A DNA stretch of 30,928 nucleotides from Candidatus Limnocylindria bacterium (GTDB lineage Bacteria; Chloroflexota; Limnocylindria; P2-11E). A model generated the notes under the pieces. It ran no database searches and was not told where the DNA came from. It worked only from the letters and a program-made list of their open reading frames with translations. Of the stretch, positions 864 through 11,301 are shown one piece after another; positions within the stretch are counted from its first letter, which is position 1, and each line of letters opens with the position of its first letter. The DNA lies in NCBI GenBank assembly GCA_036569685.1, contig DATCQC010000102.1, positions 1-30,928 on the forward strand, in the 5' to 3' direction. Position numbers and translations under genes: made by a program.

Positions 864-1592
864 TCAATCGGCGCGAGGTCGCAGCCAGAGCGACAGGCGC
901 AGCAGAAGCAGATCGCGGATCGCCTTGAGGATGACCTTGGGCGGTGTCCCCTTCGGCTCGTGGTGCATGCGCGGGTGGTGCGGGATGCCCACCTCCCGCG
1001 TGACGATGCCCCTCGCGCGGAGGGTGATGAGCAGCTCGGGCGAGAAGAACGCGCCGTTCGACCGGACGCGCGAGAGGGGCACACGCGTGAACACGTCGGC
1101 CCGGAACAGCTTGAACGCGCAGTCCACGTCCCGCCAGCCGCCGGCGAACAGCATGCGGATCGCCCGGTTGTACACGCGCGACACGACGACGTGCCACCAG
1201 CCGTATTCCAGCGTGAGGCGATAGCCGAGGACCGCATCGACGCCCGGTGTGAGCGCCGCGGCCAGCTTCCCGAAGTCCGCGACGTCGAATTGCTGGTCTC
1301 CGTCCGTGAAGAAGATGAACGGCTGCGTCGCGCTTTCGAGGCCCGCGCGCACGGCCCCCCCATATCCGCGGCCCGGCCGGTGATGGATGACCCGCACGCG
1401 TCCATCCACGCGCGAGAGCGCGTCGGCGAGCTCGCCGGTCTTATCGGTGCTGCCGTCGTCGACGACGATGACCTCGACCGATGCCGCGTACTCGGGAAGG
1501 ACCTCGAGCGCCCGCGCCACCATCGGCGCCACATTCAGCTCCTCGTTCCGCGCGGGAAAGAAGAACGACAGGCCCGGTAGCCGTTCGGTCAC
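864..1592 (-). CDS. GT2 glycosyltransferase, DPM1/Ppm1-like polyprenyl-phosphate sugar synthase
   Basis: 242 aa, GTG start. Motifs FFPARNEE, VVDDGSTD, FTDGDQQFD (DxD) and DVDCAFKLFR. No C-terminal TM pair. The donor sugar cannot be determined from sequence. Confidence 0.85.
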   Translation of the reverse strand: MTERLPGLSFFFPARNEELNVAPMVARALEVLPEYAASVEVIVVDDGSTDKTGELADALSRVDGRVRVIHHRPGRGYGGAVRAGLESATQPFIFFTDGDQQFDVADFGKLAAALTPGVDAVLGYRLTLEYGWWHVVVSRVYNRAIRMLFAGGWRDVDCAFKLFRADVFTRVPLSRVRSNGAFFSPELLITLRARGIVTREVGIPHHPRMHHEPKGTPPKVILKAIRDLLLLRLSLWLRPRAD

Positions 1593-1597
1593 AGCGG

Positions 1598-1615
1598 GAT
1601 AACGCTAGCGTTCTC
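1598..1615. promoter_or_regulatory. Palindromic bidirectional promoter candidate between divergent glycosyltransferase genes
   Basis: GATAACGCTAGCGTTCTC has a perfect 12-bp core AACGCTAGCGTT (1601-1612). It gives a TAGCGT (TANNNT) -10-like hexamer on each strand, 7 nt before GTG 1619 and 9 nt before GTG 1592. Confidence 0.6.
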
Positions 1616-1618
1616 GAC

Positions 1619-2830
1619 GTGGAGCGCCCGCTGCCGACGCGCCCTGCGCCCTCGGAGATCTGGATCGCGGTGGCCCTTGGCTGTCTCGCCGTCCTTGGCT
1701 ACGTCATCGCAGGCTGGGGTGAGCCGACGGTGTACGACTACTACGGTCGCCTCGCCGACGCCTTCGTCCACGGTCGCTACTGGCTGCTGGACGATCCGGC
1801 CTGGCTGAACGAGCTGCTCTCGTGCGGCGACGGCAAGTGGTGCGTGGCGTACCCGCCGCTTCCCGCGATCCTGTCGATCCCGCTTCTCCCGTTCGGGACC
1901 GCGACGGCACAGGACCTCGTCTCGCAGATCTGCGGCGGAGCGTCGGCCGGCGTGCTGTACGTGGCCCTGCGCGCGTACGGCGCGCCGCGCTGGGTTGCGG
2001 TCACAGGCACGCTCCTCTCGGCGTTCGGGACCACCCTTCTCTTCAGCAGCGCGGACGGACGCGCGTGGTTCGCCGCGCATGCCGTCGCGATGCTGTTCAC
2101 CACGATCGCGTTCTTCTTCGCCGCGCGGGGCGGGCCGGCCTGGTGGGTCGGCGTGGCCATCGGGCTCGCGGCGCTCGCCCGCCTGCCGGTGGCCGCCGCG
2201 ACGCCCGCGCTGGCCCTGCTCGCCGCACGCCGCGGCAACACCTCGTTCCGCGCGGCGTTCGCGCGCATCGTCGCGGGCGGCCTGCCGTTGCTCCTCGTGT
2301 ACGTCGCGTACAACGTCGCCCGCTGGGGCACCGTCACCGATGCCGGGTACGCGCGCCTCACCGAGGGCGACTTCTTCTTCGACCACGGACTCTTCTCGCT
2401 CGCCTACCTGCCGCGCCACCTCTACGCGATCTTCATGGAGCCGCCGGACCTCGTCCCGAACGTCTGGTACTTCCTGCGGCCTCACTTCGTGGGGATGAGC
2501 CTGTTCCTCACAACGCCGGCGCTTTTGTTCGTGTTCGCGGGACTGCAGGACGTCCGGCGATCGGTCGTCGTGGCCGCGACCGCGATCGCGGCGGCCCTGG
2601 CCCTCCTGCCAGATGTCACGCACGGCACCGTCGGCTTCGCGCAGTTCGGCTACCGGTTCAGCATCGATGCCCAGCCGTTCCTCATCGCGCTCGCGGTGGG
2701 CGGCGACGCCCTGCGTGATGGCGTTTGGCGCAGGCGTCCGTCCATCCTGTTCCTGCTCGCGTGCGTGATCGCGGTCGTGATCAATGTCTACGCGGCGATC
2801 GCGATCATCCACTACGGATGGTGGCAGTGA
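1619..2830 (+). CDS. Polytopic membrane protein, probable GT-C superfamily glycosyltransferase
   Basis: 403 aa from GTG 1619. Many hydrophobic helices, an acidic first external loop (EPTVYDYY...AYPPLPAIL) and a C-terminal GFAQFGYRFSID motif, in a GT-C-like layout. The stop overlaps the next start (GTGA). Confidence 0.65.
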   Translation: MERPLPTRPAPSEIWIAVALGCLAVLGYVIAGWGEPTVYDYYGRLADAFVHGRYWLLDDPAWLNELLSCGDGKWCVAYPPLPAILSIPLLPFGTATAQDLVSQICGGASAGVLYVALRAYGAPRWVAVTGTLLSAFGTTLLFSSADGRAWFAAHAVAMLFTTIAFFFAARGGPAWWVGVAIGLAALARLPVAAATPALALLAARRGNTSFRAAFARIVAGGLPLLLVYVAYNVARWGTVTDAGYARLTEGDFFFDHGLFSLAYLPRHLYAIFMEPPDLVPNVWYFLRPHFVGMSLFLTTPALLFVFAGLQDVRRSVVVAATAIAAALALLPDVTHGTVGFAQFGYRFSIDAQPFLIALAVGGDALRDGVWRRRPSILFLLACVIAVVINVYAAIAIIHYGWWQ

Positions 2831-4218
2831 CCGATCTTCGGCGGCGGCGCGCGAATATCGCGATCGCCGTCATCATCGTCATCGGCGTCGTGCTGCGACT
2901 GCTCGTCACGCGCGCGCAGGGTTTCCCGTCCGACGTCGGGACGTTCATGGCCTGGGCGGAGAAGCTCGCTGCGGTCGGTCCCGGCCGCTTCTACGAGCCC
3001 GGCTACTTCAGTGATTATCCGCCGGCGTTCCTCTACGTCCTCTGGGCGATCGGGTCGTTGTTCGACGGCGACGCCCTCCGCTTCGCGGTGAAGGCGATCA
3101 GCATCCCGGCCGACGTCGGCATCGTCCTGCTCATCGTCCCGCTCGTGCGCCGCCACGCGGGCAGCGGCGCCGCGATCCTCGCCGCGGGCATCTGGATGCT
3201 GCAGCCCGCGCCGATCTTCGGCGGCCCGTACTGGGGTCAGGTCGACGCGGTCGGCACCCTACCGTTCCTCGCCGCGCTCCTCGCCGCCGGCAGCCGGCGC
3301 TGGGCGATCGCCGGCCTCCTCGCGGGGCTGGCGACCATGACCAAGCCGCAGTTCGGCCTCGTGCTCGGCGTCGTGCTCGTCGCCGCGGCGGTCGAGCTCG
3401 CCCGCGCCCACGACTGGCGGCCGCTCCTGCGATCGGGCGGCGCAGCGCTCGCGACGATGCTGCTCCTCGCGTTGCCGTTCGGGATGACCCCGGGTGCGTT
3501 CATCGGCCTCGTGCGCAGCGCGTCGGAGACGTACCCGTACTCATCGCTGTACGCGTTCAACGGCTGGTCCATCTTCCTCGACTTCTGGACGGACGACGCG
3601 ATGTGGGTGGTGCCCGGCGCCATCCTGCTCGCCGTCGGCATCCTCGCGTCGGTGGTGCCCCTGTGGTGGCGCCGCGACACGGCGGCGCTGCTCGCGGTCG
3701 GAGCAGCGACGGTCATGGCGTTCTACTTCCTCCCGACCCGCGCGCACGAGCGCTACCTCTTCCCGGACCTTGCGCTCCTGCTCCCGTTCGCTGCCACGCG
3801 CCGCCGGATCATCGTGCCGTACCTCATGCTCGCGGGCACCTTCTTCGTGACCCTTTACTTCGCGTTCACGCGCTACCCGCAGAACGATCTGACGGCGCCG
3901 GCCTGGCTCGACGCGACCGTCTTCGGCCGGACCGGCCAGATCGCGATCGCGCTCCTGTTGATCGGGACGGCCGCGCTCATCTGCTGGCGGCTCGCGCGCG
4001 GCGAGGCGCGCCTCGAACCGACGCTCGCCCTCGACGCGGGCGTCGTCGTGACGCTCGAGCCGGCGCCGTCGCGGTGGGCGCTGCCGGCCGGGCTCGGCAT
4101 CGGCGGTCCGGCGCTGCGCCGCGACCTCCTCATCGCCCTCATCGTCGCGCTCGCGGTCCTCGGCACGCGCGGTTTCCGCCTCGATTGGCCGCGCGACATG
4201 TACTTCGACGAGGTGTGA
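2827..4218 (+). CDS. N-terminal fragment: Gpi18-like mannosyltransferase (GT-C) domain plus the start of the PMT domain
   Basis: GTG 2827 overlaps the upstream stop. Motifs GFPSDVGTF, DYPPAFLY, WGQVD, KPQ and RAHERYLFP. Ends at YFDEV (the PMT DE motif) followed by a premature TGA. Confidence 0.75.
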   Translation: MTDLRRRRANIAIAVIIVIGVVLRLLVTRAQGFPSDVGTFMAWAEKLAAVGPGRFYEPGYFSDYPPAFLYVLWAIGSLFDGDALRFAVKAISIPADVGIVLLIVPLVRRHAGSGAAILAAGIWMLQPAPIFGGPYWGQVDAVGTLPFLAALLAAGSRRWAIAGLLAGLATMTKPQFGLVLGVVLVAAAVELARAHDWRPLLRSGGAALATMLLLALPFGMTPGAFIGLVRSASETYPYSSLYAFNGWSIFLDFWTDDAMWVVPGAILLAVGILASVVPLWWRRDTAALLAVGAATVMAFYFLPTRAHERYLFPDLALLLPFAATRRRIIVPYLMLAGTFFVTLYFAFTRYPQNDLTAPAWLDATVFGRTGQIAIALLLIGTAALICWRLARGEARLEPTLALDAGVVVTLEPAPSRWALPAGLGIGGPALRRDLLIALIVALAVLGTRGFRLDWPRDMYFDEV

Positions 4219-4297
4219 TCACGCGCGGACGGCGTTCGAGCTGCTCGCGCAGCGCGAGCCGTACGAGTGGACCCACCCGCACCTCGCGAAAGAGGTC

Positions 4298-6427
4298 ATG
4301 GCCCTTGGCATCCTCGCGTTCGGTGACGACCGGGTGGTCGGGACCGAGGCCGCGCCCACGAATGTGACCGCGTTCAACGTCACGAACGACGGCACCCGGA
4401 TCTTCGGTCTGGCGGACGGCACGATCGAGGTGCGAGCGCGCGATGCCGAGGTGCTGCGCGTCATCGGCCACGTGAGCTCCGCCCCGCGCTGGGTCGGCAT
4501 CGACCAGGACCACGTCTACGTCGTCGCCGACCGAGATCTCGCGGACCTATCGCTCACCCGGCAGCACCCTGACGTGTCTCGACCGCTCACGAGCGCCGTC
4601 ACGGCCGCCGCGTTCATCGGTGGCCGCCTCGTGGTCGGTGGCGCGAATGCGACGTCGGTCTACACGTCGATCGATGCCTCGCCGACGACCGTCGATGTGG
4701 GCGCGATCGGGTTCGCCGCGAAGAACGACGGGAGCGAGGCCTACCTGCTCGACCCGGCCGGCGCGGTGCACGTCATCGAGACCGCGGGCTGGACCGAGAC
4801 GAAGACCTACCCGAGCGTCGCGCCGGAGCGGGCCATCGCGTTCTCGCAGGGACCGAACACGATCGTGCTCGCGCGGGCGGACGAGCCGACCTTGGACTCG
4901 ATCAGCACGGACGACGGCCACCGCGACACGGTGCCGCTCGCGAACGCGCGGACGGGAACGTTCTCGAGCGGCGTCACGGCCATGACCGTCGTCACGCGGA
5001 CGGATTTCCTCTATGCGATCGCGGACGGCCGTGTCGTCGTCGTCGACGTGCACGGCCTCTCGCCGTTCGCGGCCATCCCGACCAGGGCGACCAGCCTGGG
5101 GGTCGACGGCACCGGCGACACGCTGGTCGCGCTCGGCCCGTCCGGCAGCGCCGATCGGATCGAGACCGGCCGGCTCGCGCTCGCCTGGCGCCTCCCCGGC
5201 GTCATCGCCGCCGCGCTGCTTGCGTTCATCCTGGTGCTGCTCGCGCGACGGCTGTTCGCCTCACGGCTCGTTCCGATCATCGTCGGGATCGCGGTCATCC
5301 TCGATGGCTCGATGTACGCGCAGGCCCGGATCGGCATGAACGACATCTACGTGGCCCTCTTCATCGTCGCCGGCTGGTACTTCATCGTCGCGGCGCACCG
5401 CCCGCGGTGGTCCGCGCGCGCCGACATCCTCATCGCGGGGGTGCTCCTCGGTCTGGGCGCCGCGTCGAAGTGGGCGGCGTTCTACACGCTGGCCGGCGTC
5501 CTCGTCGCCGCGCTCGCCGTCACCGCTTATGCCTACGCGAATGGACGTCCCGGCCGGGGCGGTCCGCTCGACTTGTTGGCCGGCAGGGGGAAGAACGCGG
5601 CGCTCCTGTTCCTTTCATTCGCGGTCATCCCGGTCGGGATCTACCTCGCCAGCTACGTGCGGTGGTTCGGCGGCCCGACCGCGCCGTACGGCTGGGACCT
5701 CATCGAGCTCACGAAGCAGATGTACTGGTACCACTCGGGCTTGACCTCGCCGCACCCGGCGGCCTCGCCGTGGTGGAGCTGGCCGATCGTCCTGAAGCCC
5801 GTCTACTGGTACTTCGGCCAGTCCGACGAGGGGAACAACGCGTACATCTACGACGCCGGGAACCTCGCGCTGTTCTGGGCCGCGCTCGTCGCGACGGTGT
5901 GGTGCGCGATCGCCGCGATCCGCGCGCGCTCCGTCGTGCTCGGCTTCGTCGTGTTCGCGTTCCTCGTGCAGTACGTGGCCTGGATCCCGATCTCGCGGGT
6001 GCTGTTCTTCTACCACTTCTTCACGGCGCTGCCTTTCTATCTCCTCCTTCTCAGCGTGTGGCTCGCGTATCTCTGGGAGACCGGCCGGAAGAGCTGGGTG
6101 GTCGGGTACCTTGCCGTCGCCGCGGCGGTGTTCGTGTACTTCTATCCGTTCGTCTCGGGGCAGCCGGTCCCGGGCTCGCAGGCCGCGATGTTCTTCGTGC
6201 TCCCCACGTGGCAGTACGACTGCCAGTTCTACCCATCGTTCGTGTGCCCGCTGAACGCGCCGGCCGACGTGCCGATCGCCGCGGTCGCGCTCCGGGTCGC
6301 CGCGGCCGGCGCCCTGGCGGCCCTCGCGGCCGGTGCGTTCTTCATCGCGCGGTCGCCCGAGCGGGCGCTCGCGACCGCGCGCGACCTTCTAGGGCGAGGC
6401 GCTCGGGGTGGGAGCGACGCTGGGTGA
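4298..6427 (+). CDS. C-terminal fragment: beta-propeller-like insertion + PMT/GT39 membrane domain
   Basis: Homologous reading actually begins at 4220 (HARTAFE...THPHLAK). PMT motifs QARIGMNDIY, GAASKW, YWYHSGLTSPHPAASPWWSWP and RVLFFYHFF. A beta-strand-rich soluble segment spans ~4325-5175. Confidence 0.75.
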   Translation: MALGILAFGDDRVVGTEAAPTNVTAFNVTNDGTRIFGLADGTIEVRARDAEVLRVIGHVSSAPRWVGIDQDHVYVVADRDLADLSLTRQHPDVSRPLTSAVTAAAFIGGRLVVGGANATSVYTSIDASPTTVDVGAIGFAAKNDGSEAYLLDPAGAVHVIETAGWTETKTYPSVAPERAIAFSQGPNTIVLARADEPTLDSISTDDGHRDTVPLANARTGTFSSGVTAMTVVTRTDFLYAIADGRVVVVDVHGLSPFAAIPTRATSLGVDGTGDTLVALGPSGSADRIETGRLALAWRLPGVIAAALLAFILVLLARRLFASRLVPIIVGIAVILDGSMYAQARIGMNDIYVALFIVAGWYFIVAAHRPRWSARADILIAGVLLGLGAASKWAAFYTLAGVLVAALAVTAYAYANGRPGRGGPLDLLAGRGKNAALLFLSFAVIPVGIYLASYVRWFGGPTAPYGWDLIELTKQMYWYHSGLTSPHPAASPWWSWPIVLKPVYWYFGQSDEGNNAYIYDAGNLALFWAALVATVWCAIAAIRARSVVLGFVVFAFLVQYVAWIPISRVLFFYHFFTALPFYLLLLSVWLAYLWETGRKSWVVGYLAVAAAVFVYFYPFVSGQPVPGSQAAMFFVLPTWQYDCQFYPSFVCPLNAPADVPIAAVALRVAAAGALAALAAGAFFIARSPERALATARDLLGRGARGGSDAG

Positions 6428-7261
6428 TGGCGATGGGCTCGGACTCTCGGACGGGGAGGCCGACGCGGACGCGCTCGGCGAAGGCGACAGAGTCGGCGCC
6501 AGCACGGGGGTCGACAGGAGGGCGCCGAGCGCGCCGGCGATCGCGACGAGGATGAGCAGCGCGAGAATGAGGGTGCCCGCGAGGGCGCGCCCCATCGCAG
6601 GCCGCCGTACGGCGAACACGATCACGGTGATGTTGTCCAGGCCGCCGCGGGCCCGCGCGAGCGCCACGAGGGCGTCCGCGGCGCGATCGGGGCGGTCGGC
6701 CATCGCGCTCGCGATCTCGGGATCGGCCACGTGGCGGGTGAGGCCGTCTGAGCACAGGACGAGCCGGTCCGCGGGCTGGAGCGTCTCGACGAAGATGTCG
6801 GGCTGCACGCCACGGGGATCGCCGAGGAACCGGGTGATGCTGCTCGCCTGATCGCCGCTGTGGTCGGTCGTGAGCTGGCGGATGGTCCGTCCGCGGACGA
6901 GGTACGCGCGCGAGTCCCCGAGGTTCGCGACCGCCGCCTCGCGCCCGCGGATCGCGGCGGCGACGAGCGTGGTCGCGGCGCGCGAGAAGCGCTCGTCCTT
7001 CGCGGCCGCGAGGACGGCCGCGTTCGCGTGCTGCACCGCGTCGCCGAGCGCCGTGCGGGCGCTGTCGCGGAACGACGGCGGCGAGAACGACGCCGCGAGG
7101 CCCTCGATCGCCGCGGCGCTCGCGATCTCGCCGCCGGCCTCGCCGCCGACGCCGTCGGCGACCGCGATGAGCGTGACGCCCGCGTAGTCCCGCGCCAGCC
7201 ATCGATCCTCGTTCTGCTCGCGGACGATGCCCGGATCGGTCCGCGCCGCGAGGTTAGTCAC
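6389..7261 (-). CDS. PP2C/PPM-family Ser/Thr phosphatase with C-terminal TM helix and Ser/Pro-rich tail (PstP-like)
   Basis: Motifs EQNED, AVADGVGG, NLGDSRAY, LCSDGL and GGLDNITV. TM segment LAGTLILALLILVAIAGALGALL is followed by (SP/SA)n. GTG start overlaps the kinase stop. Confidence 0.9.
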   Translation of the reverse strand: MTNLAARTDPGIVREQNEDRWLARDYAGVTLIAVADGVGGEAGGEIASAAAIEGLAASFSPPSFRDSARTALGDAVQHANAAVLAAAKDERFSRAATTLVAAAIRGREAAVANLGDSRAYLVRGRTIRQLTTDHSGDQASSITRFLGDPRGVQPDIFVETLQPADRLVLCSDGLTRHVADPEIASAMADRPDRAADALVALARARGGLDNITVIVFAVRRPAMGRALAGTLILALLILVAIAGALGALLSTPVLAPTLSPSPSASASASPSESPSPSPSPSVAPTPSASP

Positions 7262-8472
7262 TGTTTCTTGGCGCAGTTTCCCGACACGATGACCAAGCTC
7301 GCAGTCGAGCCAGATTGGACCACTGTTCCAGCAGCCGGCTGCTGGCTCACGACCGAGCAGGCCTTGCCCTTCGCCTGGGGATCAATCGTCCACGGGATCG
7401 GACCGCGGAAGCCCGCTGCGATGAGGGCCGTCGCGGCCTCATTTACGTCCTTCCCGACGACATCGGGTGTCGCCTGCACTGTCCCGGCCGTCGGCGCGGG
7501 CGTGCCGTTCGTGCCGCCGACGGTCACTGCGGGGAAGCGCGCGAAGAACAGGACGACCGCGACGAGGATCGCGAGCACGACGCCGAGCGCGAGGAGCGTG
7601 TCGAGCCGCGGCCACCGTCGCGACGACGAAGCGATGTTCGGCCGCAGGACCCGGGTGACCGGATCGTTCACCGCGTCCGACAGTGCCCGGGCGAACGCGC
7701 CGGCGGTGGCGTAGCGGCGATCCGGATCGCGCGCCAGGCCCTTCGCGATCACCGCGTCGGCGGTCTCCGAGAGACCGGCGTCGGCCGAGCGGATGTGCGG
7801 CGCGCCGCGCTCCAGCCGGTCGCGCAGGAGATCCTCATTCTCGGCACCGGCGAACGCGGGCTCGCCGGTGAGCAGCTCGTACGCGACGAGCGCGAGGCCA
7901 TACACGTCCGTCCGCGGCGTGACGGGCTTGCCCTCGACACGCTCGGGCGCGATGTACCGGGCCGTCCCGACGAGCTCGCGCTCGTCGCTGTCTCGCGCCG
8001 CCCGCGCGATCCCGAAGTCCGTGAGCTTCGCGTTGCCCGAGCCATCGACGATCACGTTCGCCGGTTTCACATCGAGATGCACGAGGCCGGCCTCGTGGGT
8101 CGCGTCGAGCGCGCCGGCGAGCTGGCGGATGAGCGTCGCGACCTCAGGCGCCGGGAGCGCACCGCGCTCGGTCACGATGTCGCGCAGGGACCGGCCGCGC
8201 ACCTCCTCCATCACGATGAACGCATCGCTCCCGTCCTGGCCCTCGTCGAACACGGTGACGATGTGCGGGTGGCTCACCGCGGCGGCGCGGCGGGCTTCCA
8301 TGGTGAAGCGCTCGCGGAATGCCGGCTCGGCCTCCGCGCCCAGCACCTTCACGGCGACGTCGCGGTCGAGTCGCAGGTCGCGGGCGCGCCAGACCTCGGC
8401 GGTCCCGCCCCGGTCGATCCGTTCGGTCAGGCGATAGCGACCCGCGAGGAGGCGCCCTGTTGGATCGGGCAT
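7258..8472 (-). CDS. Hanks-type Ser/Thr protein kinase with TM helix and a single PASTA domain
   Basis: Motifs VAVK, HLDVKPAN, DFGIARA, GTARYIAPE and DVYGLA. TM segment LLALGVVLAILVAVVLFF. PASTA-like PDVVG...AGF...VVSQQPAAG...GS. ATG 8472 has GAGAGG upstream; alternative ATG at 8484. Confidence 0.9.
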   Translation of the reverse strand: MPDPTGRLLAGRYRLTERIDRGGTAEVWRARDLRLDRDVAVKVLGAEAEPAFRERFTMEARRAAAVSHPHIVTVFDEGQDGSDAFIVMEEVRGRSLRDIVTERGALPAPEVATLIRQLAGALDATHEAGLVHLDVKPANVIVDGSGNAKLTDFGIARAARDSDERELVGTARYIAPERVEGKPVTPRTDVYGLALVAYELLTGEPAFAGAENEDLLRDRLERGAPHIRSADAGLSETADAVIAKGLARDPDRRYATAGAFARALSDAVNDPVTRVLRPNIASSSRRWPRLDTLLALGVVLAILVAVVLFFARFPAVTVGGTNGTPAPTAGTVQATPDVVGKDVNEAATALIAAGFRGPIPWTIDPQAKGKACSVVSQQPAAGTVVQSGSTASLVIVSGNCAKKQ

Positions 8473-8490
8473 GTTGCCTCTCATCGCAAG

Positions 8491-8590
8491 TTTCGTGCGG
8501 CCGGGCCCGGCTTAGCCGGCCCCGGCCGAGTCCCATTCACTTTCGTGCGGCCGGGCCCGGCTTAGCCGGCCCCGGCCGAGCCTCATTCAA
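8491..8590. repeat. Two tandem 50-bp direct repeats, each an imperfect palindrome (REP-like)
   Basis: 8491-8540 and 8541-8590 match at 47 of 50 positions. Each contains CGGCCGGG-C-CCGGC-TTA-GCCGG-C-CCCGGCCG. Confidence 0.9.
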
Positions 8591-8618
8591 ATGGACGGCA
8601 ACTCCGGTGCCGCAGCGC

Positions 8619-9770
8619 CTATGTCAGGGTGACCAGGGCCGCGAGGGCGTCCTCGTAGATCGAGTCGCTCCGCGCGATCGTGAGCTCCTCGCCGAGCAGC
8701 TCGCTGACGCCCGGGCGCCCGAGCGGCACGATGCGCTCGGACATGCCGCGGCCGCCGACCGTGACGAGCGCGGTCGCATGCGTGGTCGCCTCGGACCGCT
8801 TCACGACGAACTCGGCGTGGCGGCCCCCATCCTCGGATTGGATGCGCAGGCCGGAGAGGTCTCCCTCACTGAGCCCCCGGATGAACCGTGGTCGCACGCG
8901 CACGGGGATCTCCTGGCCGTCGGGCCGTCGCATCGCGAACAGCAGGCCGCCGGCCTCGGATGGGGCGAGCGATTCGATCGCGGTCCAACCGAGGCGCGAC
9001 GCGAGCCACGCGATGAACAGGAGCGCCTGCGACGGGTGGATCTCGCGGCCATCCGCATCGACCGCGAACCCGACGCGGATGCCGGTGATGGTGTCCAGGA
9101 ACGGCCGCCACGCAGGAACGTCGAAGAACTGCATGACCAGCTCGCGCCACGGGGTGATGCGCGTCCAGTTGAAATCGGTGACGCCGTACCGTCTGTCGCC
9201 GGCCCGAGCGACGGCATGCAGCCGTGGCAATGTGCGATCCGGCCGCGCGAAATCACCGGAGTCGACGATGAGGCGGTTCGCGAGTCGGAGCAGGTCGTCG
9301 AAGAACGGCAGGTCGAGGGGCGGCGTCTCGGTCCACCAGAGGAACACGGGCAGGTCGGGCAGCAGCAGCGGGATCACGGCGCTCACGAGGCGGCGATCCG
9401 CGGCGCCGCGCGCGCGGATGAGGATCTGCTCGTAGCTCACCTGCTGCGCTCCATCCGGATGTGACAGGTGGCAATGCATCTCGAGCTCGGGCGTGCCACC
9501 GCCCGGTTCGCGGTCGGCGACGATGACGATCGCGCGCGACGGATGGCGCGTCGCGAGCTGATCGATGGTCGCGGCCGCGCGGCGCGCATGGATCTCGCGG
9601 GTGGCGAACACGACGAGATTGAGGACCGACGCGCGCGCGACCGGCACGCCGTGCTCCTTCGCGTGCGCGCCGCTCGATCTGCGGAGTCGCGCGAGCTCTC
9701 GCTCGAGGGCCGACACGCTGTCGGTGCGCGCGCCCCACACGGTCTCATCGATCGTCGACATGACGCTCAT
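8619..9770 (-). CDS. opcA: Glucose-6-phosphate dehydrogenase assembly protein OpcA
   Basis: Motifs RASVLNLVV, RHPSRAIV, LLLPDLPVFLWW, RLIVDS and DFNWTRITPWR. Lies directly downstream of zwf. Start ATG 9770 (or 9761). Confidence 0.88.
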   Translation of the reverse strand: MSVMSTIDETVWGARTDSVSALERELARLRRSSGAHAKEHGVPVARASVLNLVVFATREIHARRAAATIDQLATRHPSRAIVIVADREPGGGTPELEMHCHLSHPDGAQQVSYEQILIRARGAADRRLVSAVIPLLLPDLPVFLWWTETPPLDLPFFDDLLRLANRLIVDSGDFARPDRTLPRLHAVARAGDRRYGVTDFNWTRITPWRELVMQFFDVPAWRPFLDTITGIRVGFAVDADGREIHPSQALLFIAWLASRLGWTAIESLAPSEAGGLLFAMRRPDGQEIPVRVRPRFIRGLSEGDLSGLRIQSEDGGRHAEFVVKRSEATTHATALVTVGGRGMSERIVPLGRPGVSELLGEELTIARSDSIYEDALAALVTLT

Positions 9771-9774
9771 CGCG

Positions 9775-11301
9775 CTACGGCTTCCGCCACGTCCGCCCAT
9801 CCTGGGCGATGAGCAGATCCGCCTCGGCCGGCCCCCACGTCCCGGCTGGGTAGACCGGCACCGCGCTCCGGCCGGCGGCCCAGGCCTGCGCGATCGGGTC
9901 GACGAAGCGCCACTGTTGCTCGACCTCGTCCTGGCGCGTGAACAGCGTCGCGTCGCCACGGAGCGCGTCGAGGATGAGCGTCTCGTACGCGTCGGGCGCG
10001 TCGACCATGAACGACGCTCCGTAGACGAAGTCCATGTTCACCGAACGGATACGGATGCCCTGCACCGGGACCTTCGCCCCGAACTTCAGCGAGATGCCCT
10101 CGTCGGGCTGGATGCGCAGGACGAGGGCGTTCGGCTCCATTCCCTCGGCCGCCTCGCGCGAGAACACCGCGTGTGGCGCCGCGCGGAAATGGATCGCGAT
10201 CTCCGTCGCGCGCTTGGGCAGCCGCTTGCCGGTGCGCAGGTAGAACGGCGTTCCCTCCCACCGCCAGTTGTCGATGAACGCACGGATCGCGAGGAAGGTC
10301 TCGGTCTTCGAGTCCGGCGCGACACCGTCCTCCTCGCAGTAGCCGCGGACCGGGGCGCCCTCGATGAAGCCGGGACCGTACTGGCCGCGGATGACGTTGC
10401 TGTCGGCCTCCTCCGTCCTGATCGGGCGGACCGCCCGCAGCACCTTGAGCTTCTCGTCGCGAACGGACTTCGCGTCGAACGAGACCGGCGGCTCCATGCC
10501 GACGAGCGCCACGAGCTGGAGCAGGTGGTTCTGGACGATGTCCCGGAGCGCGCCCGCCTGCTCGTAGTACGCGCCGCGCTCCTCGATCCCGAGCGACTCG
10601 GCAACGGTGATCTGCACGTGATCGACGTACTGGCGGTTCCAGATCGGCTCGAAGATCCCGTTCGCGAACCGCAGCACGAGGATGTTCTGGACCGTCTCCT
10701 TCCCGAGGTAGTGGTCGATGCGGAAGATCTCGTCCTCGGTGAAGACGCCCTGGAGCTTCGCCGACAGCTCGGTCGCGCTCCCAAGATCGTGGCCGAACGG
10801 CTTCTCGACGACGACGCGCGCGTTCACGTTCTCCGTGAGGCGATGCTCTTTGATGAGGTCCGTGATCGGACCGTATGCCGAAGGGGGCGTCGCGAAGTAG
10901 AACAGCCGGTTCCCGTTCGTCCCGGCGCGGACGTCGAGGTCGGCGAGGGTGTGCCGAAGGGTCTCGTAACCCTCGCCGTCGCGCGTCGAGACGTAGTGGA
11001 CGCTCTCGGCGAAGCTCCGCCAGACGTCCTCGTTGATCGGCTTCGTGCGCGAGAACTTCACGAGATCGGCGTGAAGGCTCTCGCGGAACTGCTCCGATGT
11101 GAGGTCGGCCCGGGCGGCTCCGACGACCGCGAAGGCCGCCGGGAGCAGCCGCTGCAGGGCCAGGTTGTAGAGCGCGGGCACGATCTTCCGCGCCGCGAGG
11201 TCGCCCGTCGCGCCGAAGATCACGAGCGCGCAGGGCTGCGGCGTCCGCGCGAGCCGCGGGCCCGCGCGCAGCGGGTTCGCGAGCGGCGGCGCGACCGTCA
11301 C
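9775..11301 (-). CDS. zwf: Glucose-6-phosphate 1-dehydrogenase
   Basis: Motifs IFGATGDLA, VVEKPFG, RIDHYLGKETVQN, RDIVQNHLLQ and FYLRTGKRL. Confidence 0.97.
   Translation of the reverse strand: MTVAPPLANPLRAGPRLARTPQPCALVIFGATGDLAARKIVPALYNLALQRLLPAAFAVVGAARADLTSEQFRESLHADLVKFSRTKPINEDVWRSFAESVHYVSTRDGEGYETLRHTLADLDVRAGTNGNRLFYFATPPSAYGPITDLIKEHRLTENVNARVVVEKPFGHDLGSATELSAKLQGVFTEDEIFRIDHYLGKETVQNILVLRFANGIFEPIWNRQYVDHVQITVAESLGIEERGAYYEQAGALRDIVQNHLLQLVALVGMEPPVSFDAKSVRDEKLKVLRAVRPIRTEEADSNVIRGQYGPGFIEGAPVRGYCEEDGVAPDSKTETFLAIRAFIDNWRWEGTPFYLRTGKRLPKRATEIAIHFRAAPHAVFSREAAEGMEPNALVLRIQPDEGISLKFGAKVPVQGIRIRSVNMDFVYGASFMVDAPDAYETLILDALRGDATLFTRQDEVEQQWRFVDPIAQAWAAGRSAVPVYPAGTWGPAEADLLIAQDGRTWRKP

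Follow-up and report, generated by a model that had tools for sequence, protein, structure and literature searches.

What does a domain of 283 amino acids do inside a loop of a bacterial protein O-mannosyltransferase (PMT)? The locus that raises this question belongs to a soil bacterium of Candidatus Limnocylindria, in the phylum Chloroflexota (assembly GCA_036569685.1). We analysed contig DATCQC010000102.1 from position 1 to 30,928, and this whole stretch of 30,928 nucleotides is called the window. On its forward strand, the open reading frame (ORF) 4298..6427 encodes 709 amino acids of a PMT of the GT39 family. The domain, at 4325..5173, interrupts the first external loop (EL1) of the enzyme. 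An initial annotation, made without database searches, had proposed a beta-propeller of about seven blades at this place, and the structure predictions agree with it. The PMT itself is one half of a larger protein, a fusion with a GT87-like module.

The insert and its predicted fold

The ORF holds the peptides that the initial annotation had quoted, AFNVTNDGTRIF, FAAKNDGSEAYLLD and LGVDGTGDTLVAL. Upstream of the domain, positions 4220..4324 (+) translate into the first part of EL1, HARTAFELLAQREPYEWTHPHLAKEVMALGILAFG, with predicted helices at residues 2-9 and 22-35 (DSSP of the AlphaFold2 model). The insert begins directly after the loop-1 helix, which ends in ...HPHLAKEVMALGILAFG. It closes with ...RIETGR, and LALAWRLPG follows. 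The AWR motif opens the second transmembrane segment (TM2) of the PMT module. The rest of this module, from LALAWR and TM2 to the C-terminus, lies at 5174..6427 (+), including PMT_4TMC and the stop codon. The insert is rich in G, V, T and D, and the part after LALAWRLPG is a polytopic membrane domain. Translation bears out a segment of about 283 residues between AFGD and LAWRLPG, after which the Pfam PMT profile resumes. The annotation had given its limits as 4325..5175. The insert ends at 5173; position 5175 falls two bases inside the next codon.

The linkers are short. Three residues separate ...AFG from the start of the insert, and about five lie between its last strand and AWR/TM2. The catalytic DE motif is found about 37 residues upstream. 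These distances agree with the proposed site in the first external loop. The annotation had also stated that (G/A)WR follows within a few residues in typical bacterial PMTs. The single sequence used for comparison is L087, an ordinary PMT of a sister lineage within the class. At this place it reads HPPLGNWLIGIGIRLFGYDEFGWR. It has 5 residues where the window has 283 and the short linkers. The motif of the loop-1 helix (4274-4291) is HPHLAK, compared with HPPL(A/G)K in solved eukaryotic PMTs and HPPLGN in L087. In the 62-row alignment of the PMT part, H19 and P20 of this helix do not vary, and the conservation of H21 is at least 90%.

The first external loop of PMTs is lumenal or extracytoplasmic. 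The same is described in a preprint (10.64898/2026.07.15.738315). In P0003, a database protein 99% identical to the window's product, residues 436-496 (with the first transmembrane segment, TM1, FDEV and HPHLAK) align to two solved eukaryotic PMT chains, 9i5k_A (residues 57-115) and Pmt4, 9e61_A (residues 50-111). Over the whole sequence, the two matches have E-values of 3.4e-4 and 7.2e-4, respectively; the N-terminal stretches by themselves give weak matches. The homology of the flanking DE motif and HPxLxK helix to solved PMTs supports a location of the insert on the extracytoplasmic side. The 317 residues preceding TM2 are without a hydrophobic segment and net acidic (39 D/E vs 23 K/R). A crude Kyte-Doolittle count of transmembrane segments gave overlapping segments and was used solely for the lack of a hydrophobic stretch in the insert. 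With tethers so short, the propeller would have to be held directly on the outer face of EL1/TM2.

The insert alone matches no Pfam or NCBIfam family, and nothing relevant appears at E<=10. Its fold comes from structure prediction. In the AlphaFold2 model of the 735-aa PMT part, made with the 62-row alignment, residues ~39-315 are all-beta, with a predicted local distance difference test score (pLDDT) of ~86-97. The insert alone, predicted with a 69-row alignment, reaches a pLDDT of 96.0 and a predicted template-modelling score (pTM) of 0.92. It has 28 strands, arranged as seven four-stranded antiparallel sheets around an axis. A Foldseek search with the model of the PMT part returned G-beta (E 1.8e-12) and WDR61 (TM-score 0.76, target-normalised). 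The insert model was also compared by VIA-align with 48,161 PDB representatives, at identities of 8-16%. Its matches include Cdc20 (4aez_A; Z 28.1, 2.6 over 274 residues), WDR61 (3ow8_A; 28.0, 2.6 over 272) and E. coli YncE (3vgz_A; 27.1, 2.5 over 268). Many seven-bladed propellers tie within ~2 Z units; therefore the fold is certain by prediction and no specific family is indicated. We regard the fold and the insertion site, as described here, as close to certain.

A 1+3 "velcro" closure is suggested by the order of the strands and by a pattern like that of WD40, not by coordinates. Strand 1 would then pair with the three final strands, and the N- and C-termini would meet on one blade. Termini joined on one blade are what an inserted domain needs.

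Sequence profiles place the domain less precisely. WD40 (PF00400) has no match in the insert even at E<=10, and the identity to WD40 structures is 8-16%. Profiles of the YncE, PQQ_2 and YVTN type (PF21783, PF13360 and PF10282) do not match the window's insert. The orthologous insert of L088, from a sister lineage, matches PQQ_2 with 27.7 bits at a cut-off of 27.6. The insert profile A4 matches a Lactonase/PQQ_2/YNCE protein (E 1.7e-8), and the closest language-model clusters in the ESM Atlas are of the YncE family (0.93), which serves as a lead only. YncE/YVTN-type propellers differ from the insert in context. The identity between YncE (PDB 3vgz) and the insert is 14%, and YncE is free in the periplasm, whereas the insert is part of a membrane enzyme. 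Two loci, L063 (6001-6975) and L067 (5920-6927), have longer inserts of 325 and 336 amino acids, where a blade hidden Markov model (HMM) finds eight units, not seven. This may reflect an additional blade or an extension.

One fusion gene and a single extra base

TM1 and the DE motif lie outside the frame of ORF 4298..6427 because of an extra G at 4217 (+). This base makes a TGA at 4216-4218 and shifts the frame. The preceding ORF, 2725..4218 (+), closes with ...LIALIVALAVLGTRGFRLDWPRDMYFDEV, i.e. ...RDMYFDEV*. Homologues read DMYFDEVYHARTAF uninterrupted in a single frame (consensus of alignments A1 and A5). The adjacency of the insert to the catalytic DE loop, as annotated, stands for the distance of ~37 residues; in the assembled sequence, however, the DE motif is in another frame.

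Taken at face value, the assembly could mean that the window copy is a real pseudogene broken at 4217, with an insert that has no function in this organism. It would explain the assembled TGA, the downstream frame without TM1 and DE motif, and the gene call, which broke the gene and split off a downstream piece of 709 amino acids (P0002). The comparisons point elsewhere. The extra G is missing from 5/5 aligned relatives (DNA alignment A3). Logan contigs from four public soil-metagenome runs carry near-identical sequence, and every spanning contig drops one base at 4217. The depth with the deletion over the total depth is 26.6/26.6, 6.81/6.81, 9.8/9.8 and 7.3/7.3 in the four runs. One contig of 78 nucleotides (record 11) matches the window exactly except for the missing extra G. 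The four runs share one study, possibly including the source sample, and therefore do not count as independent support. In addition, P0003 is an intact fusion of 1202 amino acids. Because the extra G is absent from the relatives and from all spanning contigs, and P0003 is intact, the frameshift is most likely an assembly error in this metagenome-assembled genome, and a pseudogene is highly improbable. We rejected a programmed frameshift at this position as well, since all spanning contigs of the four runs are without the extra G. The true product is a GT87-like/PMT fusion of ~1,200 amino acids, and its gene is intact in nature.

The PMT module forms the C-terminal half of this protein. In the 735-aa translation of 4220-6424, Pfam PMT (PF02366) matches residues 322-477 with 50.2 bits (cut-off 22.7), and PMT_4TMC (PF16192) matches residues 493-664 with 59.1 bits (cut-off 32.4). 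The PMT profile resumes only at residue 322, which is profile position 84 of 245. The window's PMT module is the sole PMT_4TMC match in the source genome (69% complete). The catalytic motif FDEV (4204-4215, with D-E at 4207-4212) aligns with the FDEV of solved PMT chains and is kept in the A1 and A5 consensus.

The upstream part, 2818..4215 (+), encodes the GT87-like GT-C module, a linker, TM1 of the PMT and the DE motif, all of it in frame 1. The frame is open from 2725 onwards, and the fusion gene probably starts at ATG 2818. The GT87-family GT-C module corresponds to the first ~430 residues of ORF 2725..4218, and Pfam GT87 matches residues 98-332 of the 497 encoded amino acids (E 9.5e-11, 42.3 bits vs a cut-off of 25). 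A profile of the module matches GPI mannosyltransferase 1 in the PDB, with E 1e-3 and from position 88 only; a single-sequence search of the PDB with the module gave 0 matches at E<=1. Its first loop contains two aspartates, D39 (GFPSDVGTF) and D66 (FSDYPP), that do not vary among 29 and 52 sequences. They suggest that the module may be catalytically active. We also predicted the complex of the module (A5, residues 1-425) with the propeller (A4). It scored 0.01 against a mark of 0.32, gives no verdict and counts neither way. The initial annotation was right about the insert, and it overlooked the frameshift, the GT87 fusion and the clade-wide occurrence described below.

Distribution and conservation across the class

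A region-restricted search with the insert matched 265 database proteins at E<=1e-3. Among the 120 listed homologues, 98 have 1,177-1,240 amino acids and most contain PF09594; their source names include Candidatus Limnocylindria and Chloroflexota. Their precomputed Pfam matches are GT87, PMT, PMT_4TMC, PMT_2 and one PF02882, and none of these covers the insert. Together with the predicted propeller fold and, by homology, a location that is not cytoplasmic, this leaves the structural part of the initial annotation's proposal standing.

Phmmer, run exhaustively on 1.84 billion cluster representatives, gave only 26 matches at E<=1e-3. Ten of the 26 were scanned with Pfam: seven contain PMT and three show no meaningful family. 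The A4 profile search found only PMT fragments and two weak propeller proteins. In the cluster-representative and profile searches, the insert domain is found only in PMT contexts. One of the seven proteins with PMT, P0145 (756 amino acids, starting at TM1), is an unfused PMT with the insert. Two candidates were discarded. P0150 (371 amino acids), which looked like a stand-alone propeller, is a truncated, frameshifted gene call starting at the PMT TM1, and P0146 is an unrelated repeat protein.

We found 79 loci in GTDB representative genomes, nearly all of them titled Limnocylindria or Chloroflexi metagenome-assembled genomes. At 64/79 loci, one open frame holds the PMT core together with the DE motif and the HPxLxK helix, and an insert of 278-336 amino acids is present at 69/79. 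This conservation, in 265 proteins and 69/79 genome loci, means that the insert is not a product of chance. Five loci come from genomes titled Candidatus Saccharimonadales, Udaeobacter, Bathyarchaeia or Acidiferrales (L004, L026, L032, L037 and L049), yet they carry a Limnocylindria-type gene, and L004 has the full window synteny. These bins are probably mislabelled or contaminated.

Two surveys covered 201 sampled genomes of the class (including G000), one for the insert and one for PMT_4TMC. PMT_4TMC is present in 194/201 genomes, and the insert is concentrated in one family. In family f1, the insert was detected in 63/66 genomes and PMT_4TMC in 61/66; in f2, both were found in the only genome sampled (1/1 each). 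The remaining families have PMT_4TMC in nearly all genomes (f3, 60/60; f4, 64/66; f5, 7/7). The insert was detected there in 0/60, 1/66 and 0/7 genomes, respectively, and the single f4 match (E 9.4e-4) is spurious. Completeness is 76-79% in the three f1 genomes where the insert was not detected. Genomes flagged as unpublished are part of these counts; when the f1 positives G151, G067 and G112 are set aside, the f1 count is 60/63. In 401 sampled genomes of the phylum, the A4 profile gave full-length matches only in the three f1 genomes of that sample, and weak partial matches elsewhere. The seven-bladed propeller family is near-universal in one Candidatus Limnocylindria family (f1). It is a clade-wide feature and no one-off.

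What do the sister families f3 and f4 have at this site? We looked at five of their open frames (L082-L086). They contain PMT_4TMC within frames of 1,604-2,395 amino acids, and many more frames of ~1,470-2,400 amino acids exist in f3 and f4. A homologous GT87-like module is present in 5/5 (E 5e-42 to 3e-58 in a six-sequence database). In 4/5, an insertion of 352-411 amino acids occurs at exactly the same loop-1 site. In L085, a big gap separates the DE motif (697) from the resumption of the PMT profile (1083), and the motif script did not delimit it. The flanks are alike. The sister proteins read ...NKVVGGTDLEAP... where the window has ...DDRVVGTEAAP..., and ...IDAGSNAFAWR where it has ...IETGRLALAWR. 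The 352-411-aa inserts give only sub-threshold matches in Pfam, all to propeller families. Their matches to A4 are weak and partial, and their leads in the ESM Atlas are of the YncE family. An HMM of the f1 insert gives weak, out-of-register matches of the blade type, and the blade HMM finds 5-8 weak units. Family f4 also has an ordinary PMT of ~500 amino acids without insert. L083 and L086 carry ~600 further N-terminal residues without an assigned family. The same-site inserts and the GT87-like modules of the sister families mean that the combination of GT87-like module, PMT and loop-1 insert is old in the class. The seven-bladed family is the f1/f2 form of this class-wide architecture.

Within the insert, the most conserved element is a long loop, VPLANARTGTF (domain residues 203-213; 4931..4963, +), between strands 21 and 22, which is the D5-A6 loop in our register. 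Its conservation is 0.80, compared with 0.65 overall. In its core, VPLxNxRTG (residues 203-211), no variation is seen at L205, N207, R209 and T210 in 45 sequences (A4). Other invariant or near-invariant elements are PRT(D/Q)FLYA, HG(L/A)SPFA, D265 and the exit ETGR. Blades 5, 6, 7 and 1 are conserved, and blades 2-3 are variable with insertions and deletions. The unfused P0145, whose insert is 25% identical, still has this loop motif, as PLANARVGEF.

Known systems and the role of the propeller

A pulldown with Pmt-FLAG in Mycobacterium smegmatis recovers GT87-like, beta-propeller and DivIVA-like proteins, and an AlphaFold3 model places an eight-bladed propeller directly above the DE site of Pmt, as a possible MIR-like gatekeeper or selector of acceptors (10.64898/2026.07.15.738315). 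A second preprint reports the PimE-like MSMEG_6899 as a PMT interactor. The Limnocylindria protein is alike in that a periplasmic propeller (ML0810c/MSMEG1929/Cg0880 in the mycobacterial complex) goes with a GT39 PMT and a GT87-family GT-C partner (ML2687c/MSMEG6899). The mycobacterial complex consists of three separate polypeptides and its propeller has eight blades, whereas in Limnocylindria there is one chain, with seven blades spliced into EL1. By this analogy, the Limnocylindria protein appears to unite in cis three components reported in trans in Actinobacteria. Fusions of GT39 enzymes to a GT87 module are described in Paenibacillus (UniProt V9WAU2; 10.64898/2026.07.15.738315). They have the same two modules, and the Limnocylindria fusion adds the propeller. 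Actinobacterial Pmt (NF058602) shares the DE motif, the HPxLxK helix, AWR, and PMT with PMT_4TMC. According to 10.64898/2026.07.15.738315, it is without a large periplasmic domain, whereas the Limnocylindria PMT has one.

Eukaryotic PMTs (Pmt1/Pmt2/Pmt4 and POMT1/2) carry a soluble MIR domain in an external loop, which caps the catalytic centre and is implicated in acceptor handling. The insert is likewise a soluble domain in an external loop, and its role would be similar. PMC12331936 locates MIR in the fourth external loop (EL4). It also describes bacterial PMTs as without MIR, and how these enzymes compensate and select acceptors is called an open question. No Pfam match to MIR was found in the window's protein, where the stretch from PMT to PMT_4TMC is short (residues 477-493). 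As the initial annotation had said, fold and loop differ: in eukaryotes a beta-trefoil (MIR) occupies EL4, between TM7 and TM8, and in the window's protein a seven-bladed propeller occupies EL1. The different fold and loop mean that the propeller was acquired independently of MIR. A literature search on bacterial PMTs and propellers, Limnocylindria mannosyltransferases, GT39-GT87 fusions, and GT-C proteins with beta-propellers yielded no description of a PMT with an inserted propeller.

From these comparisons, we propose that the propeller, tethered tightly to the outer face of the membrane module near the DE motif of the GT39/PMT module, would cap the active site and select or present acceptor polypeptides, which it would bind and might hand off to the GT87 module. 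Encoded in cis, it would match the separate mycobacterial subunit of eight blades, and it would be an analogue of MIR. The transferred sugar is presumably mannose. For the fused GT87-like module, the equivalent would be either the GT87-like partner of Pmt or an elongating enzyme of the PimE type. The propeller over the mycobacterial Pmt active site in the 2026 preprint strengthens, by analogy, the case for the putative role in substrate recognition, or as a lectin or chaperone, that the initial annotation had suggested. On balance, we consider an extracytoplasmic role in capping and acceptor selection rather probable.

Several points weigh against this proposal. The mycobacterial subunit has eight blades and the insert seven, and the two are likened by architecture and position only. 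The place "above the active site" is suggested by linker length and analogy. The whole-PMT AlphaFold2 model is moderate (pLDDT 73.4, pTM 0.62, with transmembrane regions partly <50). The NCBIfam equivalog for Pmt, NF058602 (PrMnsylTfPmt), scores 51.2 bits against a cut-off of 800. The protein is thus a member of the family, not an equivalog, and this score does not fix the sugar and the acceptor class. The supporting literature consists of preprints (10.64898/2026.07.15.738315 and the second preprint). Finally, the conserved positions of the propeller cluster in one sector (blades 5-7 and 1) and, in blade 6, on both faces. A ligand site would explain this pattern no better than a fixed packing interface.

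This last point leads to another possibility. The propeller might be an architectural brace that fixes the geometry of the GT87-like and PMT modules, or mediates oligomerisation, with no direct recognition of the acceptor. The sectoral pattern, with its variable blades 2-3, is in line with it. So are the very short linkers and the class-wide GT87-like/PMT fusion with an insert at the same site. In mycobacteria, the pair of GT-C proteins needs bridging factors (10.64898/2026.07.15.738315). Nevertheless, the unfused P0145 keeps both the insert and the most conserved loop motif, so bridging to GT87 cannot be the sole role. A pure brace is unlikely in our view, if worth keeping in mind. With both its faces conserved, blade 6 may form a fixed interface with the membrane module, from which a loop may reach the active site; the pattern is no proof of a ligand site.

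A further possibility takes the GT87 module as an active enzyme. The mycobacterial GT87 enzyme PimE elongates chains of O-mannose, and GT87 members of other actinobacteria are thought to act alike (PMC12757957). The propeller might then bind the product as a lectin does, for processivity or to pass a mono-mannosylated acceptor to GT87 for elongation. The two invariant aspartates in the first loop of GT87 (GFPSDVGTF and FSDYPP) would be in accord with it. We hold a lectin-like product binder to be distinctly unlikely.

These elements can be joined in one scheme. The protein would be a single-chain O-mannosylation machine, with an active GT87 elongase, a GT39 initiator and the propeller as gatekeeper. 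The VPLxNxRTG loop would contact the acceptor and move it on from the site of the PMT to that of GT87. A single ancestral propeller associated with PMT would have given rise to both the insert and the free actinobacterial subunit of eight blades, with the 352-411-aa inserts as an eight-bladed intermediate. As a whole, this scheme is tentative and we give it limited credence.

The gene neighbourhood was counted over the 79 loci, many of them truncated by contig ends. Upstream and divergent lies a GT2 gene (864..1592, -; 242 amino acids), found at 52/79 loci. It matches Pfam Glycos_transf_2 (E 1.4e-24), and its sequence matches in the PDB are ArnC (6.4e-11), the DPMS structure 5mlz (2.3e-6) and the GtrB-like sll0501 (3e-6). 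All its NCBIfam matches are below cut-off. The protein resembles polyprenol-phosphate sugar synthases and is a candidate for a synthase of the lipid-linked donor. A GT-C-like polytopic membrane protein of 449 amino acids (1481..2830, +; 62/79 loci) overlaps the probable start of the fusion (2818) by 13 nucleotides. It has no Pfam match and a weak NCBIfam match to the putative glycosyltransferase LA_3751/LA_3752 (E 7e-7, below cut-off). This protein may add a third GT-C-like component to the operon of the fusion. A PP2C phosphatase (72/79 loci), a Ser/Thr kinase with PASTA (66/79) and OpcA (64/79) are on the opposite strand, directly downstream, at 6389-9959 (-). A diaminopimelate (DAP) decarboxylase-like gene (+) occurs at 31/79 loci.

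Capped PMTs as such are already known; what is new here is that a GT87-PMT fusion carries a seven-bladed propeller in EL1. An extracytoplasmic cap would have arisen in PMTs on at least two occasions, in different loops and with different folds. The fusion provides independent evolutionary support of the "Rosetta-stone" type, from another phylum, for the functional coupling of PMT, propeller and GT87. Actinobacterial PMTs are described as very hydrophobic and hard targets (PMC12331936). The single chain of Limnocylindria offers a stoichiometrically defined, more hydrophilic target for cryo-electron microscopy and for in-vitro assays of acceptor selection.

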